64,000 bases of DNA from an uncultured Alphaproteobacteria bacterium (GCA_902615745.1 CACMQB010000002.1:151936-215935), one strand, 5' to 3'. Shown: positions 3,075 through 49,637, counted from the first letter of the stretch. Notes: generated from the letters alone by a model not told the origin. Numbers and translations: made by a program.

Positions 3075-3081
3075 TATTTAA

Positions 3082-7384: not shown

Positions 7385-7401
7385 TAGCTTGGAGAATTTA
7401 T

Positions 7402-15363: not shown

Positions 15364-15922
15364 TATCTCTTACACCATATGGATTAAATGAAGTATCCTT
15401 ATTAATATTAATATTTTTAACTGGGTTTCCTACCATTGTTGCATAAGGGGGAACATCTTTTAATACTACTGTATTAGCTCCAACTCTTGCACAACTCCCA
15501 ATATTAATTGGGCCAAGAATACTTGCTCCACATCCTATGATTACATTATCCTCTATTGTTGGATGTCTTTTTGTATCTCTTTGATCACTGGAATTTTCTG
15601 CTGGACTAATACCTCCAAGTGTAACACCATGATACAATGTAACATTATCTCCAATTATACTTGTTTCTCCAATTACAGTTCCCATACCATGATCAATAAA
15701 TAGGTTTTTACCTATTTTAGCTGCTGGATGAATTTCAATTCCTGTTAAAAAACGACTAAATTGGGAAACTATTCTTGCTAGAGTGTAAAGATTTAAATTC
15801 CATAGATTGTTTGCTATTCTATGAAAGAAAACAGACTTCACTCCTGGGTATGTAAGCACGATACTTAGCTTGCTTCTTGCAGCTGGATCTCTTTGAATTA
15901 TTGAGTCTAAATAATCAGTCAT
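15347..15922 (-). CDS. cysE: serine O-acetyltransferase (short form)
   Basis: DPAARS N-terminal motif, IHPAAKIG, and hexapeptide repeats ([20 protein letters not shown]). Confidence 0.85.
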
Positions 15923-29701: not shown

Positions 29702-29708
29702 TTTTTTA

Positions 29709-30587: not shown

Positions 30588-30668
30588 TTTCATCATAAAT
30601 TTAATTTTCAGAAACTATTGAAATACAATCATTATTTTTGTAGAATTTTTTAATTATTGGGAGGTAAT

Positions 30669-31877
30669 ATGAAATTACTAGTAAAATTATTTTTAATTTC
30701 TTTAACTATTCTTCCATTCGCTAAAACTACTTCTGCAGAAGAATTAATCATTTGGAGTAGAGGTGGATGGTCAGACTGGATGGTTGAAGGGTTTAATAAA
30801 AAAATGGCTGACGAAGGAAAAGATATCGTTGCTATTAACAACCTTATTGGTCATGCTGACTTTCAGGTTAAATTTACAGCTGCACTTGCTGCTGGTGAAA
30901 GAGTTGATGTTGCAAACATCGACTTAATTAACGTACCTTATTATGCTGCAATAGGTGCATTAGAAGATATGACTGACTTTTTAAAGTCACAACCATATTA
31001 TGATCAATTAAATGGTCCAATGCTTGCTTTAGGATCTTATGATGGAACACACTTTGCTGCACCAAATGCTGCTGATGTGTCTGGTTATGTTTATAATAAA
31101 AAACTTATGCCAAACCCACCAAAAGATTGGGCTGAGATGACAAGTATGTGTGAAGACTTTGCTGCTAGAGGACAACTAATGATGGCTTGGCCTTCAAAAA
31201 GTTATGGCGGTATGATCTTTACAGGTATGCCAGTTGCTTGGGCAAATGGCGGTTCATGGGTAAGTAAAGATGGTAAAACAGCTGAGTTAAATCATCCAAA
31301 AACAGTTGAATGGTTTAAGCATTACCAAAATTTAATTAATATTGGTTGTGTGCCAGAAAACGTAGATGTTTGGGATTGGCCAGATAAACAAGATGGTTTC
31401 CTAGCAGGTGATATCGCAATGATTGGTACAGGTAACTTCATGATTAATGTTGTTAAAGATCACACAGAAAAAGTAGATGCTGGATTTACAGCATTTATGG
31501 GTAGTGATGGTTCAAGAAATTCAGCATTTATCGGAGGTGACTTAATCGCAATCCCAGTTACAACTGGCGCTAAAGAAGCAGCTCTTGAATATATTGAATA
31601 TGTATTATCTGAAGCTGGTCAAATCGAAGTATATACTAAAAACGGTGGTATACCAATTCGAGCAGATCTATTTGAAGGTAATCCATACCTAACTGATGAT
31701 CACATGGTATTTGCAAATGCATCTACTGTTGGAGATGTTCCTTATACAACTGTTTATCAGGAGTTAATGGATCCATGGCAAGTAGCAAATCAACGAATTT
31801 TTGCTGGTGAAGATGTGCAGACGGTTCTTGATGAACAAAATGCAATCATGCAAAAAATCATTGATGCTGGTCATTAA
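30669..31877 (+). CDS. ABC sugar transporter substrate-binding protein (family 1 SBP)
   Basis: Signal peptide MKLLVKLFLISLTILPFAKTTSA after the RBS gggagg. Trp/Gly-rich SBP fold. Heads an SBP-permease-permease-ATPase operon. Confidence 0.8.
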   Translation: MKLLVKLFLISLTILPFAKTTSAEELIIWSRGGWSDWMVEGFNKKMADEGKDIVAINNLIGHADFQVKFTAALAAGERVDVANIDLINVPYYAAIGALEDMTDFLKSQPYYDQLNGPMLALGSYDGTHFAAPNAADVSGYVYNKKLMPNPPKDWAEMTSMCEDFAARGQLMMAWPSKSYGGMIFTGMPVAWANGGSWVSKDGKTAELNHPKTVEWFKHYQNLINIGCVPENVDVWDWPDKQDGFLAGDIAMIGTGNFMINVVKDHTEKVDAGFTAFMGSDGSRNSAFIGGDLIAIPVTTGAKEAALEYIEYVLSEAGQIEVYTKNGGIPIRADLFEGNPYLTDDHMVFANASTVGDVPYTTVYQELMDPWQVANQRIFAGEDVQTVLDEQNAIMQKIIDAGH

Positions 31878-31903
31878 TAGATAAAACATTGTAGGCGAAA
31901 CTT

Positions 31904-32782
31904 ATGAGTAGATTACGAAAAGAACAACTCGTTGGTCTTTTAATGGTTTCGCCTGCACTAATTTTACTTGCAGTTTTCTTTCTTTATCCTCTTGTAAATT
32001 CTTTTTACATGTCATTTCACAAATGGCCACTTTTTGGAAAACCTAAGTGGGTAGGTCTGGATAACTATATTTTTATGTTCCAGGATGAACGCTTCTGGGA
32101 GTCTTTGAAATTTACTTTTGTTTATACTTTAACTGTTACACCAATGTTGTTTGTTGTCGCTATTGGAACTGCACTATTATGTAACGCAAAAGCTTGGGGA
32201 ACAACTTTTTTTAGAAGTATCTATTTTTTACCTGTAGTTATGTCTTTTGCCACAGCTAGCTATGTATGGTTATGGCTCTACAGTGAAATGTATGGAGTTA
32301 TCGTTTATGCATTAGAATTTTTCGGTTTTGGTGGAGAAAATAAAAATCTTAATGTGTGGAAAACAGGAACATCTTCAATGTGGGCCGTTAATGCTATGGT
32401 TACGTGGAAGTTTTCTGGTATCCAAATGATTATTTTGATAGCCGGATTACAAGCTATTAGAGATGATTATTACGAAGCATCTAAATTAATGGGAGCCTCA
32501 CGATGGCAAACAATTTGGAATGTAACACTTCCTCTACTTCGACCTTCAATTGCCCTTGCTTTAATTTTATCGATAGCAGGTTCAATTCAAGCATATGAAC
32601 AATTTGTAATCATGACAAGAGGTGGTCCTTCAAACTCTACTAAAACACTTGTTATGCATACTGTTGATATGGGATTTGATTATTTCAAATTAGGTCCAGC
32701 TGCATCTCTTGGTGTAATTATAATGATAATACTTTTTGTACTTACTGTAATTCAATTACGTTTATTTAGAAAGAATTACTAA
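31904..32782 (+). CDS. ABC sugar transporter permease, MalF/UgpA type
   Basis: 6 TM with EAA loop YYEASKLMGASRWQTIWNVTLPLLRP. Confidence 0.85.
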   Translation: MSRLRKEQLVGLLMVSPALILLAVFFLYPLVNSFYMSFHKWPLFGKPKWVGLDNYIFMFQDERFWESLKFTFVYTLTVTPMLFVVAIGTALLCNAKAWGTTFFRSIYFLPVVMSFATASYVWLWLYSEMYGVIVYALEFFGFGGENKNLNVWKTGTSSMWAVNAMVTWKFSGIQMIILIAGLQAIRDDYYEASKLMGASRWQTIWNVTLPLLRPSIALALILSIAGSIQAYEQFVIMTRGGPSNSTKTLVMHTVDMGFDYFKLGPAASLGVIIMIILFVLTVIQLRLFRKNY

Positions 32783-33709
32783 GTGAGACGTTACTCATCG
32801 GATTGGTACTGGTATTATGCAATTAATTATACTTTAGTTATAATAATTATTTTTCCAATTTATTGGACACTTATTTCTTCATTTAAAAAACCTAGTGAGC
32901 TAATTACTAGTGAGCCTACTTTTTATCCTCATGATTTAACTTTGCAGTATTATGATCAAATTTGGAATTTTGATAGACTTAAAAGACTTCAAGATACTGA
33001 GTCTGAAGATTCAGAATCATCTGGTGTTGAAATTGAGAGCAAATTTCGACTTGATGGTGAAGGAGTCAAAAGACCTTTTATGAATAGTGCAATAGTTTCA
33101 GCTGGAACAATTATATTAACTATTATTGTTTGTACCTTAGGCGGATATGCACTGACTGTTTTAAATACTCCTTTAAAAAATTTTTTTTTCTTATTAGTAA
33201 TATTACCAATTTTAATACCAGGTATTTCTCTAATAATTCCTCTCTATAAATTATTAAAAGACCTTGGCCTTACTAATACTCATTTAGGTTTAATCTTAAT
33301 TCATACTTGTGGCATGTTGCCTTTAGGAATCTTTATGATGAGAAATGCGTTTAATAGTATTCCTTCCTCATTAAGAGAAGTAGCAATGCTTGAAGGATCA
33401 AGTGAATTAAAAATTATTACTTCTGTTATGCTGCCGTTAGCAATTCCCGGTCTTTTAACAGTTATGGTTTTTGCAATGTATGTTTCCTGGAATGATTACA
33501 TTTATGCTTTTATATTTATAAATTCACCAGAAAATACAATGTTAAATATTTCATTAATGAAAATTGCATTAGGTGGATCTCAATTTGAAATGAAATGGGG
33601 AAGTCTAACAGCGGGCTCAATTGTTAGTTTTCTTCCAATAATAATTTTTTATACTTTTCTTCAGCAATATTTTGTTAGAGGAGTTACAGGAAGCGCAGTT
33701 AAAGAATAG
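32783..33709 (+). CDS. ABC sugar transporter permease, MalG/UgpE type (copy 1)
   Basis: GTG start abuts the upstream TAA. EAA loop LREVAMLEGSSELKIITSVMLPLAIPG. Acidic Ser/Glu-rich insert after TM1. Confidence 0.85.
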   Translation: MRRYSSDWYWYYAINYTLVIIIIFPIYWTLISSFKKPSELITSEPTFYPHDLTLQYYDQIWNFDRLKRLQDTESEDSESSGVEIESKFRLDGEGVKRPFMNSAIVSAGTIILTIIVCTLGGYALTVLNTPLKNFFFLLVILPILIPGISLIIPLYKLLKDLGLTNTHLGLILIHTCGMLPLGIFMMRNAFNSIPSSLREVAMLEGSSELKIITSVMLPLAIPGLLTVMVFAMYVSWNDYIYAFIFINSPENTMLNISLMKIALGGSQFEMKWGSLTAGSIVSFLPIIIFYTFLQQYFVRGVTGSAVKE

Positions 33710-33717
33710 GGGGTTAT

Positions 33718-34773
33718 ATGTATTCTGTAGATTTAAAAAATGTAACAAAAAAATGGGGAGATGTTACTGCTGTCGATCAAGTAAATCTCCATATTAATGA
33801 AGGTGAATTCGTTGTACTTTTAGGTCCCTCAGGATGTGGTAAAACAACTACGATGCGTCTTGTTGCTGGATTAGAAGATATAACTGATGGTGAGATAAAA
33901 ATTGGTGACGAAATTGTAAATGATGTTGACCCAAGAAAAAGAGATGTATCAATGGTATTTCAAAATTATAGTCTTTTCCCCCACATGACTGTTAGAAATA
34001 ATATTGCTTATCCTCTAAAAATGAAAAAAATTCCTAATTCAGAACATGATAAACTTATTAAAGAAGTTTCTTCACTTGTTGAATTGCAAGATTTATTACA
34101 CCGTAAACCAGCCGAACTATCAGGTGGTCAAAGACAACGTGTTGCTCTAGCAAGAGCAATAGTTCGTCAACCACGTGTTTTTTTAATGGATGAGCCTCTT
34201 TCAAATCTTGATGCTATATTGAGAGTTACGACGAGAGCAGAATTAAAAAATCTACATCACCGACTTGGTGTAACAACAATATATGTAACACATGATCAAG
34301 TAGAGGCAATGACACTTGCAAATAGAATTGCTGTTATGAATCACGGTAAACTTTTGCAGTTTGATAAACCACAGGTAATATTTGATGATCCTTCTTCTAA
34401 ATTTGTTGCTGGTTTTATTGGTTCACCTGCAATGAATTTGATTGATGGCCGTGTAGAAAACAAAAAATTTATTTCTGATAGTCTTACCACATCTTTTGAT
34501 ATTGATTATGAAGGTGATATTACACTTGGAGTAAGACCTGATAAAATTCAAATAGTTAATGATACTGATACAAATAATGGATCTGCAAAAGTTTATTCTG
34601 TCGAATTAACCGGTGAAGCAAATCTAGTAACATTTAAATCAAATAATCAAAATCTAATTGTCAAAACAGATAAAAATACACATTATGATATTGATTCCGT
34701 TTTAAAATTAAATTTCAATAAAGAAGATTGTTACTTTTTTGATATAAATAGTGAGGAGAGATTGAGAATATGA
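33718..34773 (+). CDS. ABC sugar transporter ATP-binding protein (MalK/UgpC type)
   Basis: Walker A GPSGCGKTT, LSGGQRQRVALARA, Walker B FLMDEPLS, and a C-terminal regulatory/TOBE-like domain. Confidence 0.9.
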   Translation: MYSVDLKNVTKKWGDVTAVDQVNLHINEGEFVVLLGPSGCGKTTTMRLVAGLEDITDGEIKIGDEIVNDVDPRKRDVSMVFQNYSLFPHMTVRNNIAYPLKMKKIPNSEHDKLIKEVSSLVELQDLLHRKPAELSGGQRQRVALARAIVRQPRVFLMDEPLSNLDAILRVTTRAELKNLHHRLGVTTIYVTHDQVEAMTLANRIAVMNHGKLLQFDKPQVIFDDPSSKFVAGFIGSPAMNLIDGRVENKKFISDSLTTSFDIDYEGDITLGVRPDKIQIVNDTDTNNGSAKVYSVELTGEANLVTFKSNNQNLIVKTDKNTHYDIDSVLKLNFNKEDCYFFDINSEERLRI

Positions 34774-36716
34774 ACATTACAGATACAAAAATAAATAACG
34801 GTTTTTGGAAAGAGAGAAAAGAATTAAACAAAAGCGTTTCTTTATATGCAGTTTTAAAATCATTTGAAGATACTGGAAGAATTAGAGCGCTGACTGGTGA
34901 CAATGATCCTGTGAAAGAAAGGCCACATATTTTTTGGGAGTCAGATCTAGCAAAATTAATGGAAGGTGCCTTCTTTTCTATGCAGCAAGAAAAGGATGAA
35001 AAATTAGAACAAATATGTGATTCAATTATTGATAAAATTATCGCTAACCAAGAGGAAGATGGTTATTTAAATTATTTTTTCTCAAAACATGAACCAGATA
35101 ATAAATTTACGAATTTAAGAGATAGACATGAATTATATTGTGCAGGACATTTACTGGAATCTGCAGTTGAACATCATAAAGCGACAGGAAATTCAAAATT
35201 TTTCGATGCTATGGAAAGATATGTTGATCATATTATTTCTAAATTTGGAAAAGAAGAAGGGAAGATGAGAGGCTATCCTGGTCATCAAGAAATTGAATTA
35301 GCACTTGTAAAAGCTTATGAGCATACAAATAAGAAAAAATTTCTTGATCTTGCAACTTACTTTATAGACGAACGTGGAACCCACGATAAACCCGAAGATC
35401 ATTATTATGTAAAAGAAAAAAAGAAATTAATGGAAAAAGAAGGTGAAATTGATTTTTCATTATTGCCGTCAGCAATGAGAGATTTTGCAGCTTTCGATCA
35501 AGATTTCATGGGTAAAACATTTAGAGATTTGCATTATTGGCAGGCTCATGAGAGGCCAGTTGATCAAAAGACAGCTGAAGGACATTCTGTAAGAGCTCTG
35601 TACATGTTTACTGCCATGGCGGACTTAGCAAGATTAAATAATGATGAGCAAATGTTAAAGGCTTGTAAAACTTTATGGAGAAATATTGTTGATAAAAGAA
35701 TGTATGTACACAGTGGTGTTGGAAGTGCTCATATAGGTGAGAGATTTACTTTTGATTATGATTTACCTAATGACATGGCTTATGCTGAGACATGTGCAAC
35801 AATAGCGCTAATTTATTTTGCTAATAGAATGTCAAAGATAGAATTAAATAGTGAGTATGGTGATATTGTTGAAAATAGTTTGTATAATTTATTACTAGCT
35901 AGCACTTCACTTGATGGAAAAGGATTTTTCTATGACAATTATTTAGAATGTAATCCTGGTTATTTACATTCGCAACAAAGAAGACATGGGGTAAGAGATG
36001 AATATCATAAGTGTTCTTGTTGTCCTCCAAATATCACACGTCTATTTGCAAGTATGGATATGTACATTTACAATGAATTTGAAGATTCATTAGTAATTGA
36101 TCAGTATATTTCATCAGAAACTAATTTTATGAATAAGCCTCAGGGTATAAAACTAAATCAAACCAGTGAATTCCCTCATAAAGGATATTCAAAAATTGAA
36201 ATAACTGACTCAGCTAATAAAGAAACTGCCATTTATTTCAGAATTCCTTCATGGGATAAGAACATGCAAATTAATCTTAATGGATCTAAAGTCGATTATG
36301 AAGTTGTTAATGGGTATGCAAAAATAAATAAAATTTGGAAAAAAAATGATGTTATTGAATTACATTTTGATTTTTCACCAAGGTATGTTCGAACTAATCC
36401 CAATGTAAGATACAATGTAGGAAGAGCATGTTTATTTAGAGGCCCTGTTCTTTATTGTCTAGAAGAACATGATAATGGTAATTACTTAAATAAATTAGTT
36501 TTAAATACAAATAATAATCTTGATGAAAAAAATGAAAAAATAAATTCTGAAGATATTATTTCTTTAACAACTAAAGGTTTTAAATTTAAAGATACTGATA
36601 ATTTATATATTCAAGATAAACCTGATATGATGGAAACATCACTCAAGTTTATTCCATATTATTGCTGGTCTAACAGAGGCGAAAATGAAATGTTAGTATG
36701 GGTTAATGAAAATTAA
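34770..36716 (+). CDS. GH127 beta-L-arabinofuranosidase family protein (DUF1680)
   Basis: 648 aa. Cys-rich catalytic/zinc signature HKCSCCPPNITR and ELYCAGHLLE. The ATGA overlap with the ATPase stop suggests translational coupling. Confidence 0.8.
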   Translation: MNITDTKINNGFWKERKELNKSVSLYAVLKSFEDTGRIRALTGDNDPVKERPHIFWESDLAKLMEGAFFSMQQEKDEKLEQICDSIIDKIIANQEEDGYLNYFFSKHEPDNKFTNLRDRHELYCAGHLLESAVEHHKATGNSKFFDAMERYVDHIISKFGKEEGKMRGYPGHQEIELALVKAYEHTNKKKFLDLATYFIDERGTHDKPEDHYYVKEKKKLMEKEGEIDFSLLPSAMRDFAAFDQDFMGKTFRDLHYWQAHERPVDQKTAEGHSVRALYMFTAMADLARLNNDEQMLKACKTLWRNIVDKRMYVHSGVGSAHIGERFTFDYDLPNDMAYAETCATIALIYFANRMSKIELNSEYGDIVENSLYNLLLASTSLDGKGFFYDNYLECNPGYLHSQQRRHGVRDEYHKCSCCPPNITRLFASMDMYIYNEFEDSLVIDQYISSETNFMNKPQGIKLNQTSEFPHKGYSKIEITDSANKETAIYFRIPSWDKNMQINLNGSKVDYEVVNGYAKINKIWKKNDVIELHFDFSPRYVRTNPNVRYNVGRACLFRGPVLYCLEEHDNGNYLNKLVLNTNNNLDEKNEKINSEDIISLTTKGFKFKDTDNLYIQDKPDMMETSLKFIPYYCWSNRGENEMLVWVNEN

Positions 36717-36731
36717 TTTTAATTAGTTTAA

Positions 36732-37592
36732 TTGATGCAAAAATATAAAACAGATTGGTATTTATATTATCTTATAAATGTCACTTTGATTATTCTTGTT
36801 TCATTTCCTATTTATTGGGCTTTTGTTTCATCTATAAAACCACCTGATGAATTAATAACAAATACCCCAACACTCTTTCCTATAAATCCAACATTTGAAA
36901 GTTATGAAAAAATTTGGAACTTAGAGCCCACTAGCTCTAGAGGTAATGTAAGATCTGCATTTACAAATAGTGCAATTGTTTCAATTGGAACTGTAGTGGT
37001 TTCAGCAGTTATTTCTACTTTAGCTGCATATGCTCTTACTATTTTAAGAACACCATTTAGACATTTTATTTTTTTACTTATAATTATGCCAATTTTAATA
37101 CCTGGAATATCACTCCTAATTCCTCTTTATAAATTAGTAAAAGAGCTTGGATTGATGAACTCATATTTAGGCTTAATCTTAATTCACTCCACAGGCATGC
37201 TAACTTTAGGTGTTTTTTTAATGAGAAATGCTTTTATGAGTATACCAACATCTTTACGTGAGGTAGCTTTGTTAGAGGGTTCTAGTGAGTTACGAATTAT
37301 GTTTACTGTGATGTTGCCATTAGCCATACCAGGTCTTTTAACACTCATGGTTTTTGCTCTTTATGGTTCATGGAATGATTTTATTTTAGCTTTTCTCTTT
37401 GTAAATACGATTGATATGGAAATGTTAAATGTTTTCCTAATGAAATTAACATTTGCAGGATCTCAATTTGATACTTTTTGGGGGCTTTTAAATGCCGGAG
37501 CAATAATAAGTTTTGTACCAATTATAATTTTCTATATTTTTCTTCAACAATACTTTGTTAGGGGAGTGACTGGAAGTGCCGTAAAAGAGTAA
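36732..37592 (+). CDS. ABC sugar transporter permease, MalG/UgpE type (copy 2)
   Basis: EAA loop LREVALLEGSSELRIMFTVMLPLAIPG and tail QQYFVRGVTGSAVKE identical to copy 1. TTG at 36732 or ATG at 36735. Confidence 0.85.
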   Translation: MMQKYKTDWYLYYLINVTLIILVSFPIYWAFVSSIKPPDELITNTPTLFPINPTFESYEKIWNLEPTSSRGNVRSAFTNSAIVSIGTVVVSAVISTLAAYALTILRTPFRHFIFLLIIMPILIPGISLLIPLYKLVKELGLMNSYLGLILIHSTGMLTLGVFLMRNAFMSIPTSLREVALLEGSSELRIMFTVMLPLAIPGLLTLMVFALYGSWNDFILAFLFVNTIDMEMLNVFLMKLTFAGSQFDTFWGLLNAGAIISFVPIIIFYIFLQQYFVRGVTGSAVKE

Positions 37593-37593
37593 C

Positions 37594-38490
37594 ATGAAAA
37601 GGTATTCATCTGATTGGTATTGGTATTATGTTATAAACTATGCTTTAGTAGTTATAATATTATTCCCTATTTACTGGACTTTTATTTCTTCTGTTAAAGT
37701 TCCAGATGAATTAATTACAAGTAACCCAACTTTCTATCCTCATAATTGGACATGGGAGTACTATGACACAACATGGAACTTCGATGATGAAATGAGAACT
37801 AAACTGCAAAAAAAAATATCTGGAAGTACAACCATAACAGCAGGTATTGAAAGAGCTTTTTTTAATAGTAGTATAGTCACATTAGGAACTATTGTTCTAT
37901 CTTTAATCGTTTCAACACTAGCTGGTTATTCTTTAACTTTTTTTAGGATACCATTTAAAGAAGCAATTTTTATAGCATTAATTTTACCGATATTAATTCC
38001 TGCAGTTTCATTGATTATACCAATCTATAAATTACTTAAATCTCTTGGCTTAACAGATACTCATATTGGATTAATATTTTTACATGCAACAGGTATGCTG
38101 CCTATTGGTGTTTTTATGATGAGAAATGCATTTAGTAGTATTCCTTCATCATTGAGAGAGGTAGCTTTGTTAGAGGGAACTTCAGAATTAAGAATTATGA
38201 CTACAATAATGATACCTCTGGCAGTGCCAGGATTATTAACAGTAATGGTTTTTGCCTTATATATTTCATGGAATGATTACATCTTGGCTTTCATATATAT
38301 AAATAGTCCAGAAAATATTATGCTTAATACTACACTTGCCAAAATAGCACTCGGAGGTGCTAAATTTGAAATGAAATGGGGTAATTTAACAGCAGGTTCA
38401 ATTATAAGTTTTATACCAATTATTATTATTTATTCAATTTTACAAAGATACTTTATTAGAGGTATTACAGGAAGTGCCGTTAAAGAATAA
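37594..38490 (+). CDS. ABC sugar transporter permease, MalG/UgpE type (copy 3)
   Basis: N-terminus MKRYSSDWYWYYVINY matches copy 1 (MRRYSSDWYWYYAINY). EAA loop conserved. 1-nt gap from copy 2. Confidence 0.85.
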   Translation: MKRYSSDWYWYYVINYALVVIILFPIYWTFISSVKVPDELITSNPTFYPHNWTWEYYDTTWNFDDEMRTKLQKKISGSTTITAGIERAFFNSSIVTLGTIVLSLIVSTLAGYSLTFFRIPFKEAIFIALILPILIPAVSLIIPIYKLLKSLGLTDTHIGLIFLHATGMLPIGVFMMRNAFSSIPSSLREVALLEGTSELRIMTTIMIPLAVPGLLTVMVFALYISWNDYILAFIYINSPENIMLNTTLAKIALGGAKFEMKWGNLTAGSIISFIPIIIIYSILQRYFIRGITGSAVKE

Positions 38491-38495
38491 AAGCT

Positions 38496-39314: not shown

Positions 39315-39317
39315 AAT

Positions 39318-40352: not shown

Positions 40353-40355
40353 TTT

Positions 40356-42133: not shown

Positions 42134-42279
42134 ATTTTATAAACATTATAATAAAAATTGTTATTAAATAACAATTCAATTAACTTACTGAAAAATAATA
42201 TATTTTTCAATCCGATTACACTTGAAAAAGAATATTAAATGGTATTAAATTTAAATATTAAATAATTTTGGGAGGAATT

Positions 42280-43542
42280 ATGAAAAATAAAATTATTTCT
42301 TTCTTCGCTGGAATAGTAATTTCCATTTACTCATTTGGTGCATCTGCAGTTACTGAAGTTGTTTGGTGGGATTTTCTAGGTGGTGGAGATGGTGTTAGAA
42401 TGAAGCAAATGATTGATAATTTCAATGAAGCTCATCCTGATATCCAAATTAATGCTACAACTTTAGAATGGGGTGTTCCATTTTATACTAAAGTTCAAAC
42501 ATCTGCAGCTGTTGGAGAGCAACCTGATATTATGACTTATCATTTATCAAGATTCCCTCTAGCAGTACCTACTGGAGTGTTAAGACCAATAAGTGCTGAA
42601 GAACTAGCAAGTGTTGGAATTACAGCTGATAGATTTTTTCCTGCTAACTGGGAAGCAGCTAACTTTGGAGGTGCAACGCATGGTGTTCCACTAGATATTC
42701 ATGCTAACGTTATGTATTTTAATGCAGAAGTGTTAGGTGAAGCTGGTTTACTTGATGAAAATGGTCATCCAACATTATTAGATGGTGTAGATAATTTTAT
42801 GAATGGTCTAGCTAAACTAGATGAAATGATGGAATTTCCAATTGGTTTCGCTTCTGATAACGGAGGTATGATTTGGAGATGGTGGTATTCGATCCTTAAC
42901 ATGATGGAAGGAGATTTTGTAGACGGAAGTAGTATTTGTCCTGGAGATAAATGTGAAAAATCTTTACAAATTTTAATCGATCTTGTTGAAAAAGGATATA
43001 TGCCAAGTAACGTCGATTACCAATCTGCAAAAGGTATGTTTATAAGTGGTGAGTCGGCAATTCACATCAACGGCGTATGGGAAGTTCCTACTATGGTTGA
43101 TTTAATGCGAAATAATGAATTAGGTTTCAAATTTGGTGTTGTAGATATGCCTCAAGTTGGTCCTAAAATGGCTACGTGGTCTGATTCGCATGCATTTGCT
43201 ATTCCTCACAGTGATAAAAATCCAATATCCGATGAGAAACTGGAAGCAGTTTTAAAAGTTATGGGTTGGATGAGTGATAATAGTCTCTTCTGGGGAACAG
43301 CTGGTCATATACCTGCAAATACAGAAGTTGTAGATAGTGTATTCTATAAAAATATGCAGCCAAATAGCACTTATGCTAATATTGGTGAAAATATGGTTGT
43401 AGATCCATTCTTACCTATCGCAGGTGTTGCTTCACCAACTTATGATGCTTTTAGTAACTATATTGCTCCGGCAGTTAATGGTGAATTAAGTGCTGAAGAA
43501 GCAATTCAAATGATGAGAGATGATCTTGAAGCTCTAATGTAG
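42280..43542 (+). CDS. ABC sugar transporter substrate-binding protein (second system)
   Basis: RBS gggagg, then MKNKIISFFAGIVISIYSFGASA signal peptide. Family-1 SBP-like sequence. Confidence 0.8.
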   Translation: MKNKIISFFAGIVISIYSFGASAVTEVVWWDFLGGGDGVRMKQMIDNFNEAHPDIQINATTLEWGVPFYTKVQTSAAVGEQPDIMTYHLSRFPLAVPTGVLRPISAEELASVGITADRFFPANWEAANFGGATHGVPLDIHANVMYFNAEVLGEAGLLDENGHPTLLDGVDNFMNGLAKLDEMMEFPIGFASDNGGMIWRWWYSILNMMEGDFVDGSSICPGDKCEKSLQILIDLVEKGYMPSNVDYQSAKGMFISGESAIHINGVWEVPTMVDLMRNNELGFKFGVVDMPQVGPKMATWSDSHAFAIPHSDKNPISDEKLEAVLKVMGWMSDNSLFWGTAGHIPANTEVVDSVFYKNMQPNSTYANIGENMVVDPFLPIAGVASPTYDAFSNYIAPAVNGELSAEEAIQMMRDDLEALM

Positions 43543-43565
43543 AGTTAAGATCTTTTTATAAAACT

Positions 43566-43590
43566 AAGCTGCAGTACTTTACTGCAGCTT
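43566..43590 (+). other. perfect 11-bp stem / 3-nt loop intercistronic hairpin after the SBP gene
   Basis: aagctgcagta-ctt-tactgcagctt, 24 nt after the stop codon. No downstream T-tract, so it may be an RNA-stability or partial-termination element rather than a full terminator. Confidence 0.55.
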
Positions 43591-43601
43591 AAATTTAAAA
43601 T

Positions 43602-44483
43602 ATGAAAAAATATAGTAATTCAAATTTTTGGGGCCTCTTGCTTGCTTTCCCTTTTATATTTTTTTATGTTCTATTTTTACTTTATCCTACAATTTATACT
43701 TTATTATTCAGTTTCACTGACTCTCCTTTAATTGGATGGGGTAAATGGGTAGGTTTAGAAAATTATTTTAAGCTTCTTAATGATAAACTTTTTCTTAAAT
43801 CATTAAAAAATACATTTGTTTTTGTTTTTTGGACAGTTGTGCCAAATACTTTAATTGGTCTGATGTGTGCAATGATGATCAATAGACTTAAAAATCCTTA
43901 TATTGCAGCATTTCTTTTAGCTTGTTTCTTTATACCACACATTTTACCTGTTACGGTAGTAACTCAAGTTTGGTCTTGGATGTTATCTAAACAATACGGA
44001 ATTATTCAAGAATTCTTAGAATTTTTGGGTTATGCAAAAATTGCTTTTTTCAAGAAAAAACAATTTGCAATGCCAGCTGTAGCAATTGTAACAATTTGGT
44101 GGACCGTAGGTTTCAATATTTTATTATTTATTGCTGGTCTAAAATCAATTAATCCAGAAATTTACGAAGCATCTGATTTGGATGGAGCAAATTCTTGGGC
44201 TAAGTTCAGATATATAACTTGGCCTTTAATTTGGCCTATCACAGCTCTTGTTTTAACATTGCAATTAATTTTTCAACTTAAAATTTTTGATCAAATGTAT
44301 TTATTAACTGCAGGCGGTCCGTTTAATTCAACATTAGTTGTTTTACAATTAGTTTACAAACAAGGTTTTCAAATGAATAGAGGAGGTTATGCTTCCGCTA
44401 TAGCTATGGTACTTTTCTTAATAATTATAGTTGTGTCTATAATGCAATATTATGTTTTGAGAGATAAGGAAAAAGATAAATAA
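43602..44483 (+). CDS. ABC sugar transporter permease, MalF/UgpA type (second system)
   Basis: EAA loop YEASDLDGANSWAKFRYITWPLIWP. Confidence 0.85.
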   Translation: MKKYSNSNFWGLLLAFPFIFFYVLFLLYPTIYTLLFSFTDSPLIGWGKWVGLENYFKLLNDKLFLKSLKNTFVFVFWTVVPNTLIGLMCAMMINRLKNPYIAAFLLACFFIPHILPVTVVTQVWSWMLSKQYGIIQEFLEFLGYAKIAFFKKKQFAMPAVAIVTIWWTVGFNILLFIAGLKSINPEIYEASDLDGANSWAKFRYITWPLIWPITALVLTLQLIFQLKIFDQMYLLTAGGPFNSTLVVLQLVYKQGFQMNRGGYASAIAMVLFLIIIVVSIMQYYVLRDKEKDK

Positions 44484-45313
44484 TGACAAAAAAAATTACA
44501 ATATCTTGGACAGTCTTAACAATTCTTTCTTTGATAGTCGCATTAATTTTTATGTTTCCATTATATTGGGCTGCAGTTACTTCACTAAAACAAGAAACTG
44601 AAGTTATAGATCCAAACTGGTCTATTTTTCCAAGAATTTTATCATTAGCAGCATATCTAGATGTATTAACAAAATCTGCAATTGGTACTTGGTATATAAA
44701 TTCAATTGCCACTTCAATTGGCATTACGCTTTTAGTTATTTTGATTAGTATGCCATGTGGTTATGCTTTATCTCAAATTGATTTTGTCGGAAGAAAAATT
44801 ATTCTTTTAGCAGTAGTAGTAAGCATAATGGTTCCTGGAACAGCATTAGTTATTGCTCTATTTGTTCTCATTTCAGATTTTAATATGATCAATACTTGGT
44901 CTGGAGTTATATTACCTCAAGTTCTCTCACCAGTTTGTGTCATAGTTTATAAACAATTTTTTGATCAAGTTCCTAAAGAATTAAGAGAGGCAAGTATCAT
45001 TGATGGAGCAACTGAATTTCAAATTTTAATAAAAGTGTATATGCCCTTAAACTGGGGCATCACAACTGCTTTAGCCTTAGTTACATTTATTGGAGCATGG
45101 AATAATTTCTTTTGGCCTTTTATAATGACAACTAAAGCTGAAATGTTCACTGTTCCTGTAGCAATAACATCTGTTAGTGATGCTTATGGAATATTCTTAG
45201 CGAGAGACATGGCAGTTGCCATTCTTGCCGCTTTACCTGTTACAGCATTTTTCTTAATTTTCCAAAAACGCGTTACTCAAGCAATAATGTTAACTTCTGG
45301 AATTAAAGGTTAG
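44483..45313 (+). CDS. ABC sugar transporter permease, MalG/UgpE type (second system)
   Basis: EAA loop LREASIIDGATEFQILIKVYMPLNWG. 1-nt overlap with the upstream gene. Confidence 0.85.
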   Translation: MTKKITISWTVLTILSLIVALIFMFPLYWAAVTSLKQETEVIDPNWSIFPRILSLAAYLDVLTKSAIGTWYINSIATSIGITLLVILISMPCGYALSQIDFVGRKIILLAVVVSIMVPGTALVIALFVLISDFNMINTWSGVILPQVLSPVCVIVYKQFFDQVPKELREASIIDGATEFQILIKVYMPLNWGITTALALVTFIGAWNNFFWPFIMTTKAEMFTVPVAITSVSDAYGIFLARDMAVAILAALPVTAFFLIFQKRVTQAIMLTSGIKG

Positions 45314-46836
45314 TGATGAAAGCAAATATTACAGCTGTAAAAGATTTTACTATTTCTACTATAGATAAAAGAATTTATGGTTCCTTCTTGGAGCATTTAG
45401 GAAGAGCAATATACGAAGGTATTTATGAACCTGATCATCCAGAAGCTGATGAAAATGGTTTTAGAAAAGATGTAATGAAATTAATCACAGATTTAAATAT
45501 GCCAACGGTAAGATATCCTGGTGGAAATTATATATCATCATTTAACTGGGAAGATTCAATTGGTCCAATAGAAGAGAGACCTACAAGACTTGATCTTGCG
45601 TGGAAGACAAGAGAAACAAATGAGTTTGGGTTAAATGAATTTATTACTTGGTGTAAAAAAACAAATATTGAACCAATGTATGCTATCAATCTTGGAACAC
45701 GCGGTATAGATGCTGCTAGGAACATATTAGAATATTGTAATCATCCAAGTGGTTCTTATTGGAGTGATTTAAGAATTAAGCATGGATATAAGGAGCCACA
45801 TGATATTAAAATGTGGTGTTTAGGAAATGAAATGGATGGTGAGTGGCAAGTTGGTCACAAAACTGCTACTGAATATGGCAGATTGGTCCATGAAGTTGCT
45901 AAATCTATGAGAAAATTTGATTCTTCTTTAGAGTTAATTATTGCTGGGAGTTCAAATGAGGCAATGCCTACTTACCCGGACTGGGAAAGAGAAATATTAG
46001 AACATAGTTATGATTCAATTGATTATATAGCGCTTCATAAATATTGGACTAATTATGAAAAAAATACTAATTCATATTTATCAAGTAGTGTTCCTTTACA
46101 AGAATATATATCAACTGTTGAAGGTACAATTAATTACGTAAAAGCAAAAAAAAGGTCGAAAAAACAAATTAACATAAGTTTTGATGAGTGGAATCCTTGG
46201 TATCACACTAGAGACATGCAAACTCAAAATTATTTAGATAAAAACTTATCTGATTGGCCTAAGGCACCACCTTTGTATGAAGATATGTATAATATATTAG
46301 ATACATTGTTAGTTGGAACAGTTTTAAATACATTCATTAATAATTCTCACATAGTAAAAATTGGTTGTATGGCTCAATTAGTCAACGTAATACCTGCTAT
46401 TTCAACTGTAAAACAAGGTATTAGCTGGCCCCAAAGTATTTATTATCCATTATATTTTGCATCATTGTATGGAAGAGGAGATTCTTTACAACTCAAAGTA
46501 GATTGCCCTAAATATTCTTCAGAAATAGCAGATGATGTTAAGTATATTGATGCTTCTGCTGTTTTGAATAAAGAAAAAAATGAAGTATCTTTTTTTATCG
46601 TTAATAGATCAGAAAATGATAATTGTAACATTGATTTTGATTTAAAAGATTTCAATGTGGATAGTATTATTGATCAACAGATAATTAATAATGAAGATAT
46701 GTATGCAGCTAACACTAAGGACAATCCTCATGTAATTAAACCTAAAGAGACATCTATAGTTAAACTTAAAGATAATAAGTTATCAACTGATATACCTAAA
46801 TTATCATATTTGTTTATTAGATTAAAACTTAATTAA
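45313..46836 (+). CDS. abfA: GH51 alpha-L-arabinofuranosidase
   Basis: IYGSFLEHLGRAIYEGIY, VRYPGGNY and WCLGNEMDG (acid/base Glu), about 500 aa. GTG at 45313 or ATG at 45316. Confidence 0.85.
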   Translation: MMKANITAVKDFTISTIDKRIYGSFLEHLGRAIYEGIYEPDHPEADENGFRKDVMKLITDLNMPTVRYPGGNYISSFNWEDSIGPIEERPTRLDLAWKTRETNEFGLNEFITWCKKTNIEPMYAINLGTRGIDAARNILEYCNHPSGSYWSDLRIKHGYKEPHDIKMWCLGNEMDGEWQVGHKTATEYGRLVHEVAKSMRKFDSSLELIIAGSSNEAMPTYPDWEREILEHSYDSIDYIALHKYWTNYEKNTNSYLSSSVPLQEYISTVEGTINYVKAKKRSKKQINISFDEWNPWYHTRDMQTQNYLDKNLSDWPKAPPLYEDMYNILDTLLVGTVLNTFINNSHIVKIGCMAQLVNVIPAISTVKQGISWPQSIYYPLYFASLYGRGDSLQLKVDCPKYSSEIADDVKYIDASAVLNKEKNEVSFFIVNRSENDNCNIDFDLKDFNVDSIIDQQIINNEDMYAANTKDNPHVIKPKETSIVKLKDNKLSTDIPKLSYLFIRLKLN

Positions 46837-46840
46837 TTTT

Positions 46841-48670
46841 ATGCGAAAAGAACACCCAAGACCTATATTCTACCGTAAAGACTGGTTGAATTTAAATGGT
46901 AAGTGGTCTTGTGAATTTTCAAAAGATATTAAAGGTTTCTCAAAAAAAAAATTAAATAAAAAACAATTTTCAAAAAAAATTAATGTACCTTTTTGTCCTG
47001 AAAGTAAATTATCAGGAATTGGGCATACTGATTTTATTCAAGAGATGTATTATCAAAAATCTTTTGTTATTCCTAAATCATGGAAAAATAAAAAAATACT
47101 TCTACATTTTGGCGGAGTCGACTATCAGACTTCAGTTTTTGTTAATAAAAAGAAAGTTGGGTCAAATATAGGCGGTTCTACACCGTTTAGTTTTGATATT
47201 ACTAATGCAATTGTGGAAAATAAATCTAATGATTTAAAATTACATGTTATAGATAAAAGATGTCAAGGTAGCTTAGGACCTACACCATGGTATTTTGGTG
47301 ACGGTACTTTTGATAATGCTAAATTAATTAAAAAGTGGGTTCTTAATAAAAAAAGAATACAACCAAGAGGGAAGCAGTCACCTCATCAACATTCTTGGGG
47401 ATGTTATTATACCAGAACTACAGGAATATGGCAGACCGTTTGGTTGGAAGCTGTAAATAAAGACAATATTAAGAATATAACAATTCAGTCAAATTTTAAA
47501 TCATCAAGTTTTATTTTTATTCCGGAATACTCAAGAAATTTATCTTGTAATTTAAAAATTGATGTTACTTTTAATAATAAAAAAATAATTTCAACAATTC
47601 AACCAACTTCTAGTAAAAAATTTTCTATCAAAATTTCTAAACCTAAGTTGTGGTCTATTGGTAAACCAAATCTTTATAATTTCACATTTACATTATTAAA
47701 TAAAGATAAAAAAATTCTTGATGTCGTTGAAAGTTATGGAGGGATGCGATCTATAGAAATAAAAAGAAATAAAATTTATCTAAATGGAAAACCTCTTTAT
47801 CAAAGACTTGTTTTAGATCAAGGCTTCTATCCAAAGGGTATCTGGACTGCACCATCAGATAAAGATTTAAAAAATGATATTGTATTATCAATGAAAGCTG
47901 GATTTAATGGTGCCAGATTACATGAAAAAGTATTTGAAGATCGTTTTCATTATTGGGCTGATAAACTTGGTTATTTAACATGGGCGGAGTTTCCTAACTG
48001 GGGATTAAATGAAAATGCTAAAGGTTCAGAGATATCTTTTATGAAAGAGTGGCCTCGTATAGTAAATTATTTAAAAAATCATCCTTCAATTATTACTTGG
48101 ACACCTTTTAATGAAACAAATACACTAGAATGTAATTCTCAACATAAAAGTTTAATGAGAAAGGCTTATAGTATAACAAAAAAACTAGACCCAACAAGGC
48201 CTGTAAATGAAACCAGTGGTTATCAACATCAAAAAACAGATATCTGGACAGTTCATCACTATGAACCAGTTCCTGAAATTTTAAATAAAGCTCTTAATCC
48301 AAAAAAAGGTGTGTACAGAAATTTTCCACAATTTGAAACAAGTTATAAAAATGAGCCTTATATTGTTGATGAATATGGAGGTGTTTGGTGGTTACCAATA
48401 AATTTAAGAAAAAAAATTAAATCTTGGGGACATGGTGACAAAGTAAGGCCCAAAACTATTCAAGAAGTTTACGAAAGAATGGAAAAACTTACCGAGGTAG
48501 TTTTAAAAACAAAACACATACAAGGTTTCTGTTACACTCAACTAACTGATGTTGAACAAGAAACAAATGGTGTTTATCTATATGATAGAACTAATAAATT
48601 TAATGTTAAAAAACTAAGCAATATTTTTAAAGATATGTCTTTAAAACTTAAAAAAGGTTATATTCAATAA
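46841..48670 (+). CDS. GH2-family glycoside hydrolase (specificity unknown)
   Basis: N-terminal sugar-binding pattern (WLNLNGKWSCEF, FGGVDYQTSVFVNKKKVG). TIM-barrel region has GFNGARLHEK and WTPFNET. Confidence 0.65.
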   Translation: MRKEHPRPIFYRKDWLNLNGKWSCEFSKDIKGFSKKKLNKKQFSKKINVPFCPESKLSGIGHTDFIQEMYYQKSFVIPKSWKNKKILLHFGGVDYQTSVFVNKKKVGSNIGGSTPFSFDITNAIVENKSNDLKLHVIDKRCQGSLGPTPWYFGDGTFDNAKLIKKWVLNKKRIQPRGKQSPHQHSWGCYYTRTTGIWQTVWLEAVNKDNIKNITIQSNFKSSSFIFIPEYSRNLSCNLKIDVTFNNKKIISTIQPTSSKKFSIKISKPKLWSIGKPNLYNFTFTLLNKDKKILDVVESYGGMRSIEIKRNKIYLNGKPLYQRLVLDQGFYPKGIWTAPSDKDLKNDIVLSMKAGFNGARLHEKVFEDRFHYWADKLGYLTWAEFPNWGLNENAKGSEISFMKEWPRIVNYLKNHPSIITWTPFNETNTLECNSQHKSLMRKAYSITKKLDPTRPVNETSGYQHQKTDIWTVHHYEPVPEILNKALNPKKGVYRNFPQFETSYKNEPYIVDEYGGVWWLPINLRKKIKSWGHGDKVRPKTIQEVYERMEKLTEVVLKTKHIQGFCYTQLTDVEQETNGVYLYDRTNKFNVKKLSNIFKDMSLKLKKGYIQ

Positions 48671-48713
48671 AATAAGACTTTAATTAACTATAATTTTTTT
48701 CTAAAATATAAAT

Positions 48714-49637
48714 ATGAATAACAAAAAATATAAATTTTATGGAATGTGGCCAGTGGCTCCAACGCCATTTCATGAAAATGGTGAAGTTGATTACGAGGGT
48801 ATGGAAAGAGTATTGGATTGTATGGTGGATCAAAAAGTTCAAGGAATATGCATTCTTGCAAATTATTCTGAACAATTTTTACTTTCTGATGATGAAAGAG
48901 AAAAATTAACAAAACTCTGTATGAAAAAAATTGATGGAAGAGTTAAAACAATAGTTACAGTTAGTCATTTTGCTACTGATATTGTACGACCTAGAGCAGA
49001 ATTAGCAAAATCACTTGATGTAGATATTATTATGATGATGCCTCCTTATCATGGTGCATTGTTAAAGGGTAATCCAGATCAAATATTTGAGCAATTTAAT
49101 GAAATTTCAAAAGTTGGTATACCAATTATGATTCAAGATGCACCTTTATCGGGTATTGAACTTTCAGTTTCCTTACTGACAAAGATGATAAATGAGATTG
49201 AGAATTTAACCTGCTTTAAAATTGAAAGTGCTAACGCTGCTTCAAAAATAAGAGCGCTTATTAAAAATTGTAGTGAAAGACTAGATGCACCTTTTGATGG
49301 GGAAGAAAGTATCACTTTGTATGCAGATTTAGAAGCTGGAATTTCTGGTAGTATGAGTTCAGCCTTGCTTCCCGAAAAAATTGCTCCAGTAATTGATCAT
49401 TTTTGGAATAATGAAAAAGATAAAGCTGAAGAAATATATAATAATATTCTACCTTTAATAAATTTTGAAAATAGACAATGTGGTTTCAGAGCTACTAAAA
49501 CAGTAATGAAAGAGGGTGGTGTAATAAAATCAGATTTTTGTAGAGATCCTATTCAGCCGTTAGATTTAGATACAAAAAATTTATTACTCAATTTTGCAAA
49601 AAGATATGATTTACTTACTTACAATTGGGGTAAATAA
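48714..49637 (+). CDS. DHDPS/NAL-family (class I aldolase-like) enzyme
   Basis: PTPFHENGEVDYEGMERV N-terminus and Schiff-base lysine context CFKIES. 307 aa. Confidence 0.7.
   Translation: MNNKKYKFYGMWPVAPTPFHENGEVDYEGMERVLDCMVDQKVQGICILANYSEQFLLSDDEREKLTKLCMKKIDGRVKTIVTVSHFATDIVRPRAELAKSLDVDIIMMMPPYHGALLKGNPDQIFEQFNEISKVGIPIMIQDAPLSGIELSVSLLTKMINEIENLTCFKIESANAASKIRALIKNCSERLDAPFDGEESITLYADLEAGISGSMSSALLPEKIAPVIDHFWNNEKDKAEEIYNNILPLINFENRQCGFRATKTVMKEGGVIKSDFCRDPIQPLDLDTKNLLLNFAKRYDLLTYNWGK

Follow-up and report, generated by a model that had tools for sequence, protein, structure and literature searches.

The arabinan cluster of Geobacillus stearothermophilus combines ATP-binding cassette (ABC) import of arabino-oligosaccharides with intracellular hydrolysis by AbfA, a member of glycoside hydrolase (GH) family GH51, and by a GH127 enzyme, followed by the AraA/B/D isomerase pathway. 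The system of Bifidobacterium longum for hydroxyproline-rich glycoproteins (HRGPs) consists of extracellular GH43 and GH121 enzymes, an ABC importer for beta-Ara2 and the intracellular GH127 enzyme HypBA1 (bioRxiv 10.1101/2020.03.26.009860). For the order HIMB59, the passages of PMC10734472 that deal with flexible genomic islands (fGIs) describe islands for lipopolysaccharide (LPS), phosphate and phosphonate and one of undetermined function, which may or may not occupy the site treated here, and they propose cassette replacement via homologous recombination in the flanks. Here, we analysed a 64,000-nt stretch of DNA (GCA_902615745.1 CACMQB010000002.1:151936-215935, called the window below) from an uncultured alphaproteobacterium of the genus AG-337-I02 (family GCA-002718135, order HIMB59). 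The 18 kb at positions 30657-48670 are likely one version of an accessory carbohydrate-uptake island at a fixed chromosomal site, and this degree of confidence applies to the joint claim of a flexible island, of importers and furanosidases directed at arabinofuranosides, and of a core route for L-arabinose.

The island encodes two sugar ABC importers, one ATPase, the hydrolases GH127, GH51 and GH2, and a trio of redox proteins (Zn-ADH, Gfo and PhyH). This gene list, with the same positions, had been given in an initial annotation of the window; it was reproduced by listing of open reading frames (ORFs) together with Pfam and NCBIfam scans, and its family assignments were upheld, the catalytic motifs being intact in all three hydrolases. 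The genes of the island, including those for the solute-binding proteins (SBPs), and of its immediate flanks are as follows:

28814-30587 (+): left core flank, two tandem EamA/DMT transporter genes (Pfam EamA), with EamA2 at 29709-30587
30657-31877 (+): SBP1 (Pfam SBP_bac_8), signal-peptide-like N-terminus; likely start at the ATG at 30669, after a GGGAGG ribosome-binding site
31904-32782 (+): MalF-type permease of importer 1 (Pfam BPD_transp_1; type by BLASTP)
32783-33709 (+): MalG-type permease of importer 1 (Pfam BPD_transp_1; type by BLASTP)
33718-34773 (+): ATPase of the MalK/UgpC type (Pfam ABC_tran and TOBE_2; NCBIfam UgpC subfamily, 439 bits)
34770-36716 (+): GH127 beta-L-arabinofuranosidase (PF07944, 294 bits; PF20736, 72.8 bits; PF20737, 79.7 bits)
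36732-37592, 37594-38490 and 38496-39314 (+): three extra MalG-type permeases (Pfam BPD_transp_1)
39318-40352 (+): Zn-dependent MDR dehydrogenase, Zn-ADH (Pfam)
40356-41336 (+): Gfo/Idh/MocA oxidoreductase (Pfam)
41333-42133 (-): PhyH-family Fe(II)/2-oxoglutarate dioxygenase (Pfam), convergent with Gfo
42134-42267 (no strand): divergent intergenic region between PhyH and SBP2, with two palindromes
42268-43542 (+): SBP2 (Pfam), signal-peptide-like N-terminus; likely start at 42280
43602-44483 (+): MalF-type permease of importer 2 (Pfam; type by BLASTP)
44483-45313 (+): MalG-type permease of importer 2 (Pfam; type by BLASTP)
45313-46836 (+): GH51 alpha-L-arabinofuranosidase of the ArfA/AbfA type (NCBIfam ArfA equivalog NF051901, 772.6 bits)
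46841-48670 (+): GH2 enzyme of the furanosidase group, GH2_19-like by its best PDB matches; last gene of the island
48714-49637 (+): right core flank, DHDPS-family enzyme (PDB 3fkk and 7c0c, L-2-keto-3-deoxyarabonate (L-KDA) dehydratase, 264-265 bits)

A variable site between conserved flank genes

For the site survey, contigs with a DHDPS-family gene or GH127 were taken from about 46 genomes of the genus, and the proteins of the window were mapped on them. All of these genomes are single-cell or metagenome assemblies, 55-96% complete, and in most of them both junctions lie on one contig. Gene order was collinear on the left (sulfotransferase, aminotransferase, MFS transporter, dehydrogenase, GcvT-like gene, EamA1 and EamA2) and on the right (DHDPS-family gene, UPF0114, cyclase and channel genes), and the flank genes were mostly 80-100% identical within the main clade. 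Variation fell only between the EamA genes and the DHDPS-family gene, where the following states were found:

Empty, with about 20 bp between EamA2 and the DHDPS-family gene: 20 genomes
GH127 alone, in an allele 68-73% identical to that of the window: 14 genomes
GH127 plus an inverted module of permease, permease, SBP and GH2: 2 genomes
The module of permease, permease, SBP and GH2 alone: 1-2 genomes
Long forms, in at least four sub-versions: 8 genomes
Long form like that of the window: G073 and G068
Long form with the second half replaced (GH51 68% identical, inverted importer about 30%, GH2 74%): G007, G014 and G086
Long form without the second importer: G091
Long form with another first importer and extra genes, without GH127 in the fetched stretch, the contig being cut on the left: G087

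A long-read metagenome contig showed one further long-form combination. At least seven configurations exist at the site, and every occupied one carries furanosidase or sugar-importer genes. The module of importer 2 is swapped for an inverted module of about 30% identity in other versions, and the extra genes found there encode LacI regulators, an AP_endonuc_2 TIM-barrel protein, an SASA-type esterase, a fatty-acid-hydroxylase-family protein and a second PhyH. Lying at a fixed position between core genes, with differing content of equivalent function among close relatives, the block is, judged by synteny, a flexible genomic island. The initial annotation had proposed an accessory island, and this is borne out by a site that, rather than being syntenic across the whole clade, is empty in the 20 sister genomes listed above and holds other cargo elsewhere.

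On the left, EamA2 is the last conserved gene before the variable site and adjoins it in all surveyed sister genomes. On the right, the DHDPS-family gene is kept in empty genomes, in genomes with GH127 alone and in those with long forms, the identity being 92-96% for most of the genus and falling to 64-88% in some ten divergent genomes. This gene had previously been counted as part of the island, with an end at 49637; since it is present in all site states, it is a core flank gene outside the island, though functionally linked to it, and the right end is therefore 48670, the stop codon of GH2. EamA2 is the least conserved flank gene and, because its identity is 79-90% against 94-99% in its neighbours, may lie within the recombination boundary zone. 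Not every genome has the pair of EamA genes at the left boundary: both occur in many, but in some there is an EamA1-like or an EamA2-like gene alone (G005, G004, G022, G074 and G103). Further to the right, the cyclase-TPR gene (53951-55765, minus strand) is 96-99% identical in most sister genomes and 59% identical in G007 and G021, suggesting a second spot of allele replacement about 5 kb from the island.

The alleles of GH127 vary at this site as well. Between genomes with 98-100% identity in the neighbouring genes, that of the alleles is 86-88%, and the GH127 tree contains three deep allele clades from the same site, two of them from sites with GH127 alone and one from long forms (support of the long clade 97/98). 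Inside the long clade, sub-allele and second-half version are not linked: for GH127, the genome of the window (G000; 88.5% complete, 1.5 Mb) has the allele of G086 and G007, whereas its second half is that of G073 and G068. When six flank proteins of 28 genomes were placed in one tree, at least seven state changes were needed; the empty sites are basal and the occupied ones form a nested clade, and G000, with its long form, is sister to G096, which has GH127 alone (support 100/99).

Vertical inheritance of an old carbohydrate cluster of the genus, worn down by differential gene loss in the course of streamlining and not exchanged as an island, would agree with an island composition near that of the genome (GC content at third codon positions, GC3, of 0.175 and 0.160, respectively; Mann-Whitney p = 0.018), with the lack of mobility genes and flanking repeats, and with the alphaproteobacterial nature of the nearest named GH51 relatives, which belong to the Hyphomicrobiales (Devosia, Rhizobium and Pelagibacterium, 55-57% identity). 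It would also agree with a related metagenome lineage in which GH127 stands beside an EamA gene and is separated from the DHDPS-family gene, some 7 kb downstream, by a transporter/LacI/GH2 module. We nevertheless consider such a history unlikely. In the flank tree, the basal branches bear empty sites and the occupied sites are nested; between flanks that are more than 90% identical, the GH127 alleles of this site diverge by about 30%; and the second-half modules are non-homologous replacements, of about 30% identity and inverted. As the allele classes diverge to this extent and combine independently with the second halves, loss alone is insufficient and replacement or recombination is needed. 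In place of loss, we infer that cassettes are replaced by homologous recombination in the conserved flanks. A classical mobile genomic island, that is, an integrative element, was rejected, since there is no tRNA gene in the window, no integrase domain among the annotated ORFs of the island or flanks (Pfam) and no flanking direct repeat, the longest word common to both junctions being 9 nt.

Base composition was the subject of another claim of the initial annotation, which had described the island as a mosaic from GC counts on single 60-nt lines. The six values were exact (0.433, 0.417, 0.35, 0.20, 0.133 and 0.10), but they give no signal above the background: the GC content of such lines has a standard deviation (SD) of 0.075 over the window (range 0.07-0.50), and the scatter is equal inside (0.071) and outside (0.074) the island, so that the mosaic was rejected as a signal. 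Recent horizontal acquisition from donors of higher GC content could account for the difference between the island (30.6%) and the rest of the window (27.1%), and for SBP1, SBP2 and the first permease, which by GC or GC3 rank among the highest 2-10% of the genome and are the only island genes in its top 10%. This origin is very improbable in view of the equal scatter, of an island GC less than 2 points from the genome mean of 28.8% and of the ordinary GC3 of most island genes. The excess in the SBP genes lies mostly at first codon positions (GC1, 0.52) and therefore reflects amino-acid composition. Mosaicism is real solely in gene content and allele identity.

Within the order, GH51 was found only in this genus (9 genera, 186 genomes), and GH127 in none of 24 genomes of the sister family. 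A search for a donor yielded none that can be named: the Hyphomicrobiales relatives of GH51 adjoin a different transporter class (SBP_bac_5), and the relatives of GH127 are a large set of unnamed marine metagenome proteins.

Predicted furanosidases, importers and a proposed core route of L-arabinose catabolism

The GH127 gene, whose start overlaps the stop codon of the ATPase gene, encodes a protein of three domains (catalytic, middle and C-terminal), all of which exceed their Pfam cut-offs. Among solved structures it matches the GH127 beta-L-arabinofuranosidase 4qjy with 499 bits and HypBA1 of B. longum (3wkw) with 366 bits. In the alignment to 4qjy, the motifs GERFTFD/GESFTFD, AETCA/AETCA and CSCCPPN/CACCPPN correspond to each other; these presumably hold the Cys nucleophile, the Zn-binding Glu/Cys cluster and the acid/base Glu, with roles as in HypBA1. 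GH51 passes the cut-off of the ArfA equivalog (625 bits) and matches PDB 1pz3, according to its header an intracellular exo-alpha-(1->5)-L-arabinofuranosidase, with 624 bits and with GNEMDG and SFDEWN conserved. In the PDB searches, both nearest solved enzymes, 4qjy and 1pz3, carry Geobacillus names in the header or alignment.

For the GH2 protein, the best PDB matches were 7xyr (GH2_19, 516 bits), 7sf2 (260 bits) and 9j6n, a Streptomyces beta-D-galactofuranosidase of GH2_18 (207 bits), followed by the beta-galacturonidase 7vqm with 97 bits and by true glucuronidases with at most 87 bits; judged by these matches, the enzyme is neither a glucuronidase nor a galactosidase. Those parts of PMC12243196 that treat GH2_18 and GH2_19 present them as a furanosidase group, with 7XYR in GH2_19 and 9J6M in GH2_18 of the 2025 GH2 subdivision; they include specific beta-D-galactofuranosidases in the group, give about 90% of GH2_19 members as devoid of a secretion signal and say that an NE acid/base motif occurs in all four characterised GH2_19 members. 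The island enzyme retains an N-E pair (PFNET) opposite the T-V (LTVP) of 7XYR, in which the NE acid/base motif is lost, and its DEYGG, opposite GEFGG of 7XYR, is read as the nucleophile position. It is predicted to be an alpha-L-arabinofuranosidase and/or a beta-D-galactofuranosidase.

No signal peptide is evident on GH127, GH51 or GH2, and of the island proteins SBP1 and SBP2 alone show one; the three hydrolases are predicted to be cytoplasmic. With GH2 placed in the GH2_18/19 group, all three become predicted cytoplasmic furanosidases behind two SBP-dependent importers. The arabinofuranoside orientation of the block, which the initial annotation had based on GH127 and GH51, thus holds for these two assignments and, as far as sequence comparison can tell, is more coherent than first proposed. 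At another locus, about 24 genomes of the genus, G000 not among them, encode a second protein of about 647 aa with an Alpha-L-AF_C domain (e.g., G071:C1:81880-82437, G108:C1:114449-115006 and G100:C2:94235-94792), which lies about 29-30 kb left of the island site where both share a contig and may mark another variable glycoside hydrolase locus.

Reported GH127 substrates other than arabinofuranosides include aceric acid and 3,6-anhydro-D-galactosides. That the hydrolases act mainly on non-arabinose substrates, such as beta-D-galactofuranosides of fungal, protist or bacterial glycans or aceric acid, would be compatible with the specific beta-D-galactofuranosidases in GH2_18/19 and with the sole NCBIfam match of GH127, an aceric-acid hydrolase model (349 bits, far under its cut-off of 950). 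This seems distinctly unlikely, however: GH127 is much nearer to proven beta-L-arabinofuranosidases (the 499 and 366 bits above) than to other GH127 structures, GH51 passes its equivalog cut-off and an L-KDA dehydratase-like gene adjoins the island.

The initial annotation had also seen in GH127 and GH51 the enzyme pair that Bifidobacterium uses for hydroxyproline-linked beta-L-arabino-oligosaccharides and arabinans, and had inferred fragments of algal or plant HRGPs or of arabinan as substrates. This pairing does not match the actual set, which is composed of GH127, GH121, GH43 and the ABC importer (bioRxiv 10.1101/2020.03.26.009860). The order of SBP, permease, permease, (ATPase) and GH127 does resemble BLLJ_0208-0211 of B. 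longum, which encode the beta-Ara2 importer and HypBA1, the catalytic motifs are kept in the match to HypBA1, and the beta-arabinobiose binder 6LCE is among the better non-MalE matches of SBP1. Yet the island lacks the extracellular enzymes that define that system, the GH121 beta-L-arabinobiosidase and GH43 HypAA (neither domain was found among the island genes with Pfam, the rest of the genome not having been searched for either), no secreted hydrolase is encoded in it, the 52 bits between SBP1 and 6LCE are ordinary for CUT1 binding proteins, and GH51 and the GH2_19-like enzyme point also to alpha-linked L-arabinofuranose (alpha-L-Araf) or beta-linked D-galactofuranose (beta-D-Galf). A system of the Bifidobacterium type is hence improbable. 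Lacking an extracellular arabinanase in its island, the cell must rely on oligosaccharides already in seawater.

The uptake genes of the island are CUT1 ABC components only, and Pfam scans of the island genes revealed no SusC/SusD pair, the hallmark of polysaccharide utilisation loci (PULs) of the Bacteroidota type. The ORFs of SBP1 and SBP2 each likely start 12 nt downstream of the ORF start, at an ATG preceded by GGGAGG. Pairwise BLASTP gave 31% mutual identity for the MalF-type permeases at 31904 and 43602 and 41-66% for four MalG-type paralogues (32783, 36732, 37594 and 38496), the first periplasmic loop being, by eye, their most divergent part. The three extra MalG-type permeases are positioned after GH127, without an SBP, a MalF-type partner or an ATPase of their own, and gave no full-length alignment to the MalF type (best at most 29 bits); because they are intact and 89-100% conserved across all long versions, they are not decaying copies. 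The ATPase at 33718-34773 is the only one in the island and importer 2 has none of its own, so that it must also power importer 2 unless another is encoded elsewhere; we infer that both importers share it. Substrate prediction from SBP similarity was rejected because the best PDB matches reach no more than 50-60 bits.

Downstream of uptake, the flank gene becomes relevant. The DHDPS-family protein aligns over its full length to solved L-KDA dehydratase with the bit scores given above, compared with at most 83 bits for other DHDPS-family structures, and is most likely an L-KDA dehydratase. Homologues are present in 56 of 104 (incomplete) genomes of the genus, irrespective of site content, and in 0 of 71 of the sister family. 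The AraA isomerase route was rejected, as AraA was absent from 12 of 12 genomes of the genus examined while control genomes matched. Most of these 12 genomes, including G000, have two IlvD/EDD proteins and the rest, in incomplete assemblies, have one. In G000, the copy on contig C2 is true IlvD, and the other (C9:3193-4926) adjoins an SMP-30/SGL lactonase. There are also about eight full-length aldehyde dehydrogenase genes and several Gfo and MDR dehydrogenases in this genome, none of which can be assigned to the L-arabinose 1-dehydrogenase or 2-oxoglutarate semialdehyde dehydrogenase step. Together, these comparisons suggest a lineage-specific core oxidative (Weimberg-type) L-arabinose route, for which the island would be the substrate-acquisition front end. 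Positions 181-11938 of contig C9 (L102) form a sugar-acid catabolism neighbourhood with an SMP-30 lactonase, the L-arabinonate-dehydratase-like IlvD/EDD, an enolase-superfamily dehydratase (best match rhamnonate dehydratase), an Amidohydro_2 lactonase, a PdxA-like dehydrogenase, a Gfo oxidoreductase and a CuyA-like PLP enzyme.

Redox genes, proposed pathway and regulation

The redox trio of Zn-ADH, Gfo and PhyH stays together as one block in all long versions. Its members gave weak equivalog matches (NCBIfam) and generic best PDB matches (5kia, 3ezy and SnoK/MysH), the similarity of Zn-ADH being of the general family kind alone. A distant metagenome-assembled genome (MAG; L098, GCA_045564595.1 contig JBJLGZ010000005.1) has, at 1301-9181, the order PhyH, GH127 (57% identical), PhyH, SBP, permease, permease and SDR; the pairing of GH127 and PhyH therefore recurs outside the HIMB59 order, and this recurrence suggests a functional link. 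Other island versions add a xylose-isomerase-like TIM-barrel (AP_endonuc_2) gene near Gfo (G086 contig C4 (L032) 10322-11128; G087 contig C7 (L045) 14858-15661), a pairing that may resemble oxidative glycoside-cleavage systems, e.g., DgpA/DgpBC and 3-keto-glycoside lyases.

In the pathway that we propose, two periplasmic binding proteins would capture small arabinofuranose-containing oligosaccharides or glycosides, and two CUT1-type permease sets, both driven by the single MalK/UgpC-type ATPase, would import them. In the cytoplasm, GH127 (beta-L-Araf), GH51 (alpha-L-Araf) and the GH2_19-like enzyme (alpha-L-Araf and/or beta-D-Galf) would free L-arabinose and possibly D-galactofuranose. L-Arabinose would then probably enter the core Weimberg-type route, through a dehydrogenase, a lactonase, the candidate L-arabinonate dehydratase encoded on contig C9, the putative L-KDA dehydratase next to the island and an aldehyde dehydrogenase to 2-oxoglutarate. 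The site itself would be swapped between lineages by recombination in its flanks, so that co-occurring relatives carry nothing, GH127 alone, or differing importer, hydrolase and regulator cassettes. The most likely function of the island is thus the scavenging of small arabinofuranosides, perhaps also galactofuranosides, and fragments of algal or plant HRGPs, arabinogalactan proteins (AGPs) or arabinan are possible sources.

Several observations weigh against this combined interpretation. The substrates are predicted from sequence, and the binding proteins are only remotely similar to solved SBPs in the PDB (SBP1 at most 60 bits, including the 52 bits to 6LCE of B. longum; SBP2 at most 50 bits). 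The IlvD/EDD protein on contig C9 scores 836.7 bits against the L-arabinonate dehydratase model NF009559, just under the cut-off of 882. The island Gfo was considered as L-arabinose 1-dehydrogenase and rejected, having a generic family likeness but no specific similarity to any solved one, and neither the redox trio nor the three extra MalG-type permeases fit an explained role. With assemblies of 55-96% completeness, absences elsewhere in the genomes are soft, the site states being taken from site-spanning contigs. The flank tree is local and itself possibly affected by recombination, and the composition, with its only slightly raised GC3, offers no usable evidence of foreign origin.

A bolder extension, tentative and in our view rather doubtful, gives the leftover genes a combinatorial role in uptake. 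One MalF-type subunit and one ATPase, the latter also serving importer 2, would be shared among four alternative MalG-type subunits so that in a streamlined cell a small set of genes would suffice for several classes of arabino- or galactofuranosides; cassette swapping would partition the furanoside glycans of phytoplankton among co-occurring AEGEAN-169 clones; and the redox trio would perform an undescribed oxidative step on a modified arabinoside.

As to control, the initial annotation had found no regulator in or beside the island. This is correct for the version in G000, where no helix-turn-helix (HTH) domain was detected in the ORFs between 22.8 and 55.8 kb (the island and about eight genes on each side) or in ten larger ORFs sampled at 0.5-22 kb, but it is specific to that version, as sister versions carry LacI. 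In G086, G014, G013 and the metagenome contig L096, the inverted permeases are separated from the SBP by a gene of the LacI family, and in G007 a second LacI, 46% identical, stands between Gfo and PhyH. The two LacI genes that G000 has elsewhere (contigs C4 and C1) were rejected as cognate regulators, since they share only 24-35% identity with the LacIs in the islands of G086 and G007; at 88.5% completeness, a regulator gene may have been missed.

The divergent PhyH-SBP2 intergenic region contains a perfect 9-3-9 palindrome at 42156-42176 that is unique in the genome, where perfect palindromes with 9-nt arms number 0.19 per kb in a genome-wide count. In neither of the two other genomes with this version is it conserved, although in G073 all of the island but GH127 and one permease is 94-100% identical; it was rejected as a LacI-type operator. 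The second palindrome upstream of SBP2, TGAAAAATA-N-TATTTTTCA with ATA as its spacer, spans about 42188-42208; an alignment of the three genomes that share this version shows its conservation, and it is a candidate for a putative control site.

Host lineage and comparison with known systems

The host belongs to AEGEAN-169 and is not SAR11 proper. The island GH127 is 100% identical to that of the GORG-Tropics single-cell genome AG-920-E11, found in a search for related loci, and the rows of Table S1 of PMC10734472 (Molina-Pardines et al. 2023) for such single-cell genomes give o__HIMB59; f__GCA-002718135; g__AG-337-I02, genomospecies GCA002718135-1.A. AEGEAN-169 was once termed "SAR11 subclade V", now forms an order of its own and has a broader sugar range than SAR11 (PMC10308909). 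The SAR11-type flank of the initial annotation accordingly stands as to its features, a glycine riboswitch and a GcvT-like gene, and not as to its lineage. The riboswitch is located at 7235-7320 (Rfam), ahead of the ORF at 7402-8526, and an IMES-4 RNA motif (6478-6557; Rfam, 101.7 bits) lies about 680 nt upstream of it.

The related premise that glycoside hydrolases are unusual in such genomes fails for this lineage, for which richness in sugar utilisation and GH genes is already published (PMC10734472, PMC10308909). In the relevant excerpts of PMC10734472, genomospecies GCA002718135-1.A has the most glycoside hydrolases per Mb among the marine reference genomes compared and is enriched in functions for the utilisation of L-arabinose and other monosaccharides, and the CAZy table of the supplement includes GH2 and GH51 for it. 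A literature search returned no paper naming both "arabinofuranosidase" and "HIMB59".

AEGEAN-169/HIMB59 is an abundant group of surface-ocean heterotrophs, and the genus AG-337-I02 has no cultured member. The locus offers a concrete picture of how a 1.5-Mb genome may use phytoplankton-derived glycans, by scavenging furanosides without enzyme secretion, with a lineage-specific core oxidative arabinose route and a front end that varies between clones. If this is true, the published fGI concept for the HIMB59 order would extend from phosphorus to carbon substrates, and candidate enzymes and binding proteins would be named for the turnover of beta-L-arabinofuranosides in the sea, which is poorly known. 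The component families, the logic of import followed by hydrolysis and the island type (a CUT1 importer/hydrolase cluster in an fGI) are all already known.

Of the described systems, the arabinan system of G. stearothermophilus shares with the island the closest solved GH51 (1pz3) and GH127 (4qjy) and the sequence of import and cytoplasmic hydrolysis; it differs in that the island has no GH43 arabinanase and the 12 genomes of the genus examined no AraA, and in that the island adds a GH2_19-like enzyme, the redox trio and the extra permeases. The HRGP cluster of B. longum (BLLJ_0208-0213) likewise combines an intracellular GH127 with an SBP and two permeases in an operon-like arrangement, whereas the island lacks GH121 and GH43, its SBP1 is remote from 6LCE, and GH51 and GH2 are additional. 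The non-phosphorylative L-arabinose pathway of Azospirillum brasilense resembles the proposed core route in its L-KDA dehydratase (match of 264 bits), a near-threshold L-arabinonate-dehydratase-like IlvD/EDD, a lactonase and the absence of AraA; in G000, however, the genes do not lie together: one adjoins the island and some are on contig C9. The phosphate and phosphonate islands described as fGIs of the HIMB59 order (PMC10734472) agree with the present island in order and family, in a fixed position between core genes, in several versions of related function and in the lack of an integrase and tRNA, and differ from it in their cargo, which serves phosphorus acquisition, while that of the island in G000 serves carbohydrate uptake and hydrolysis.

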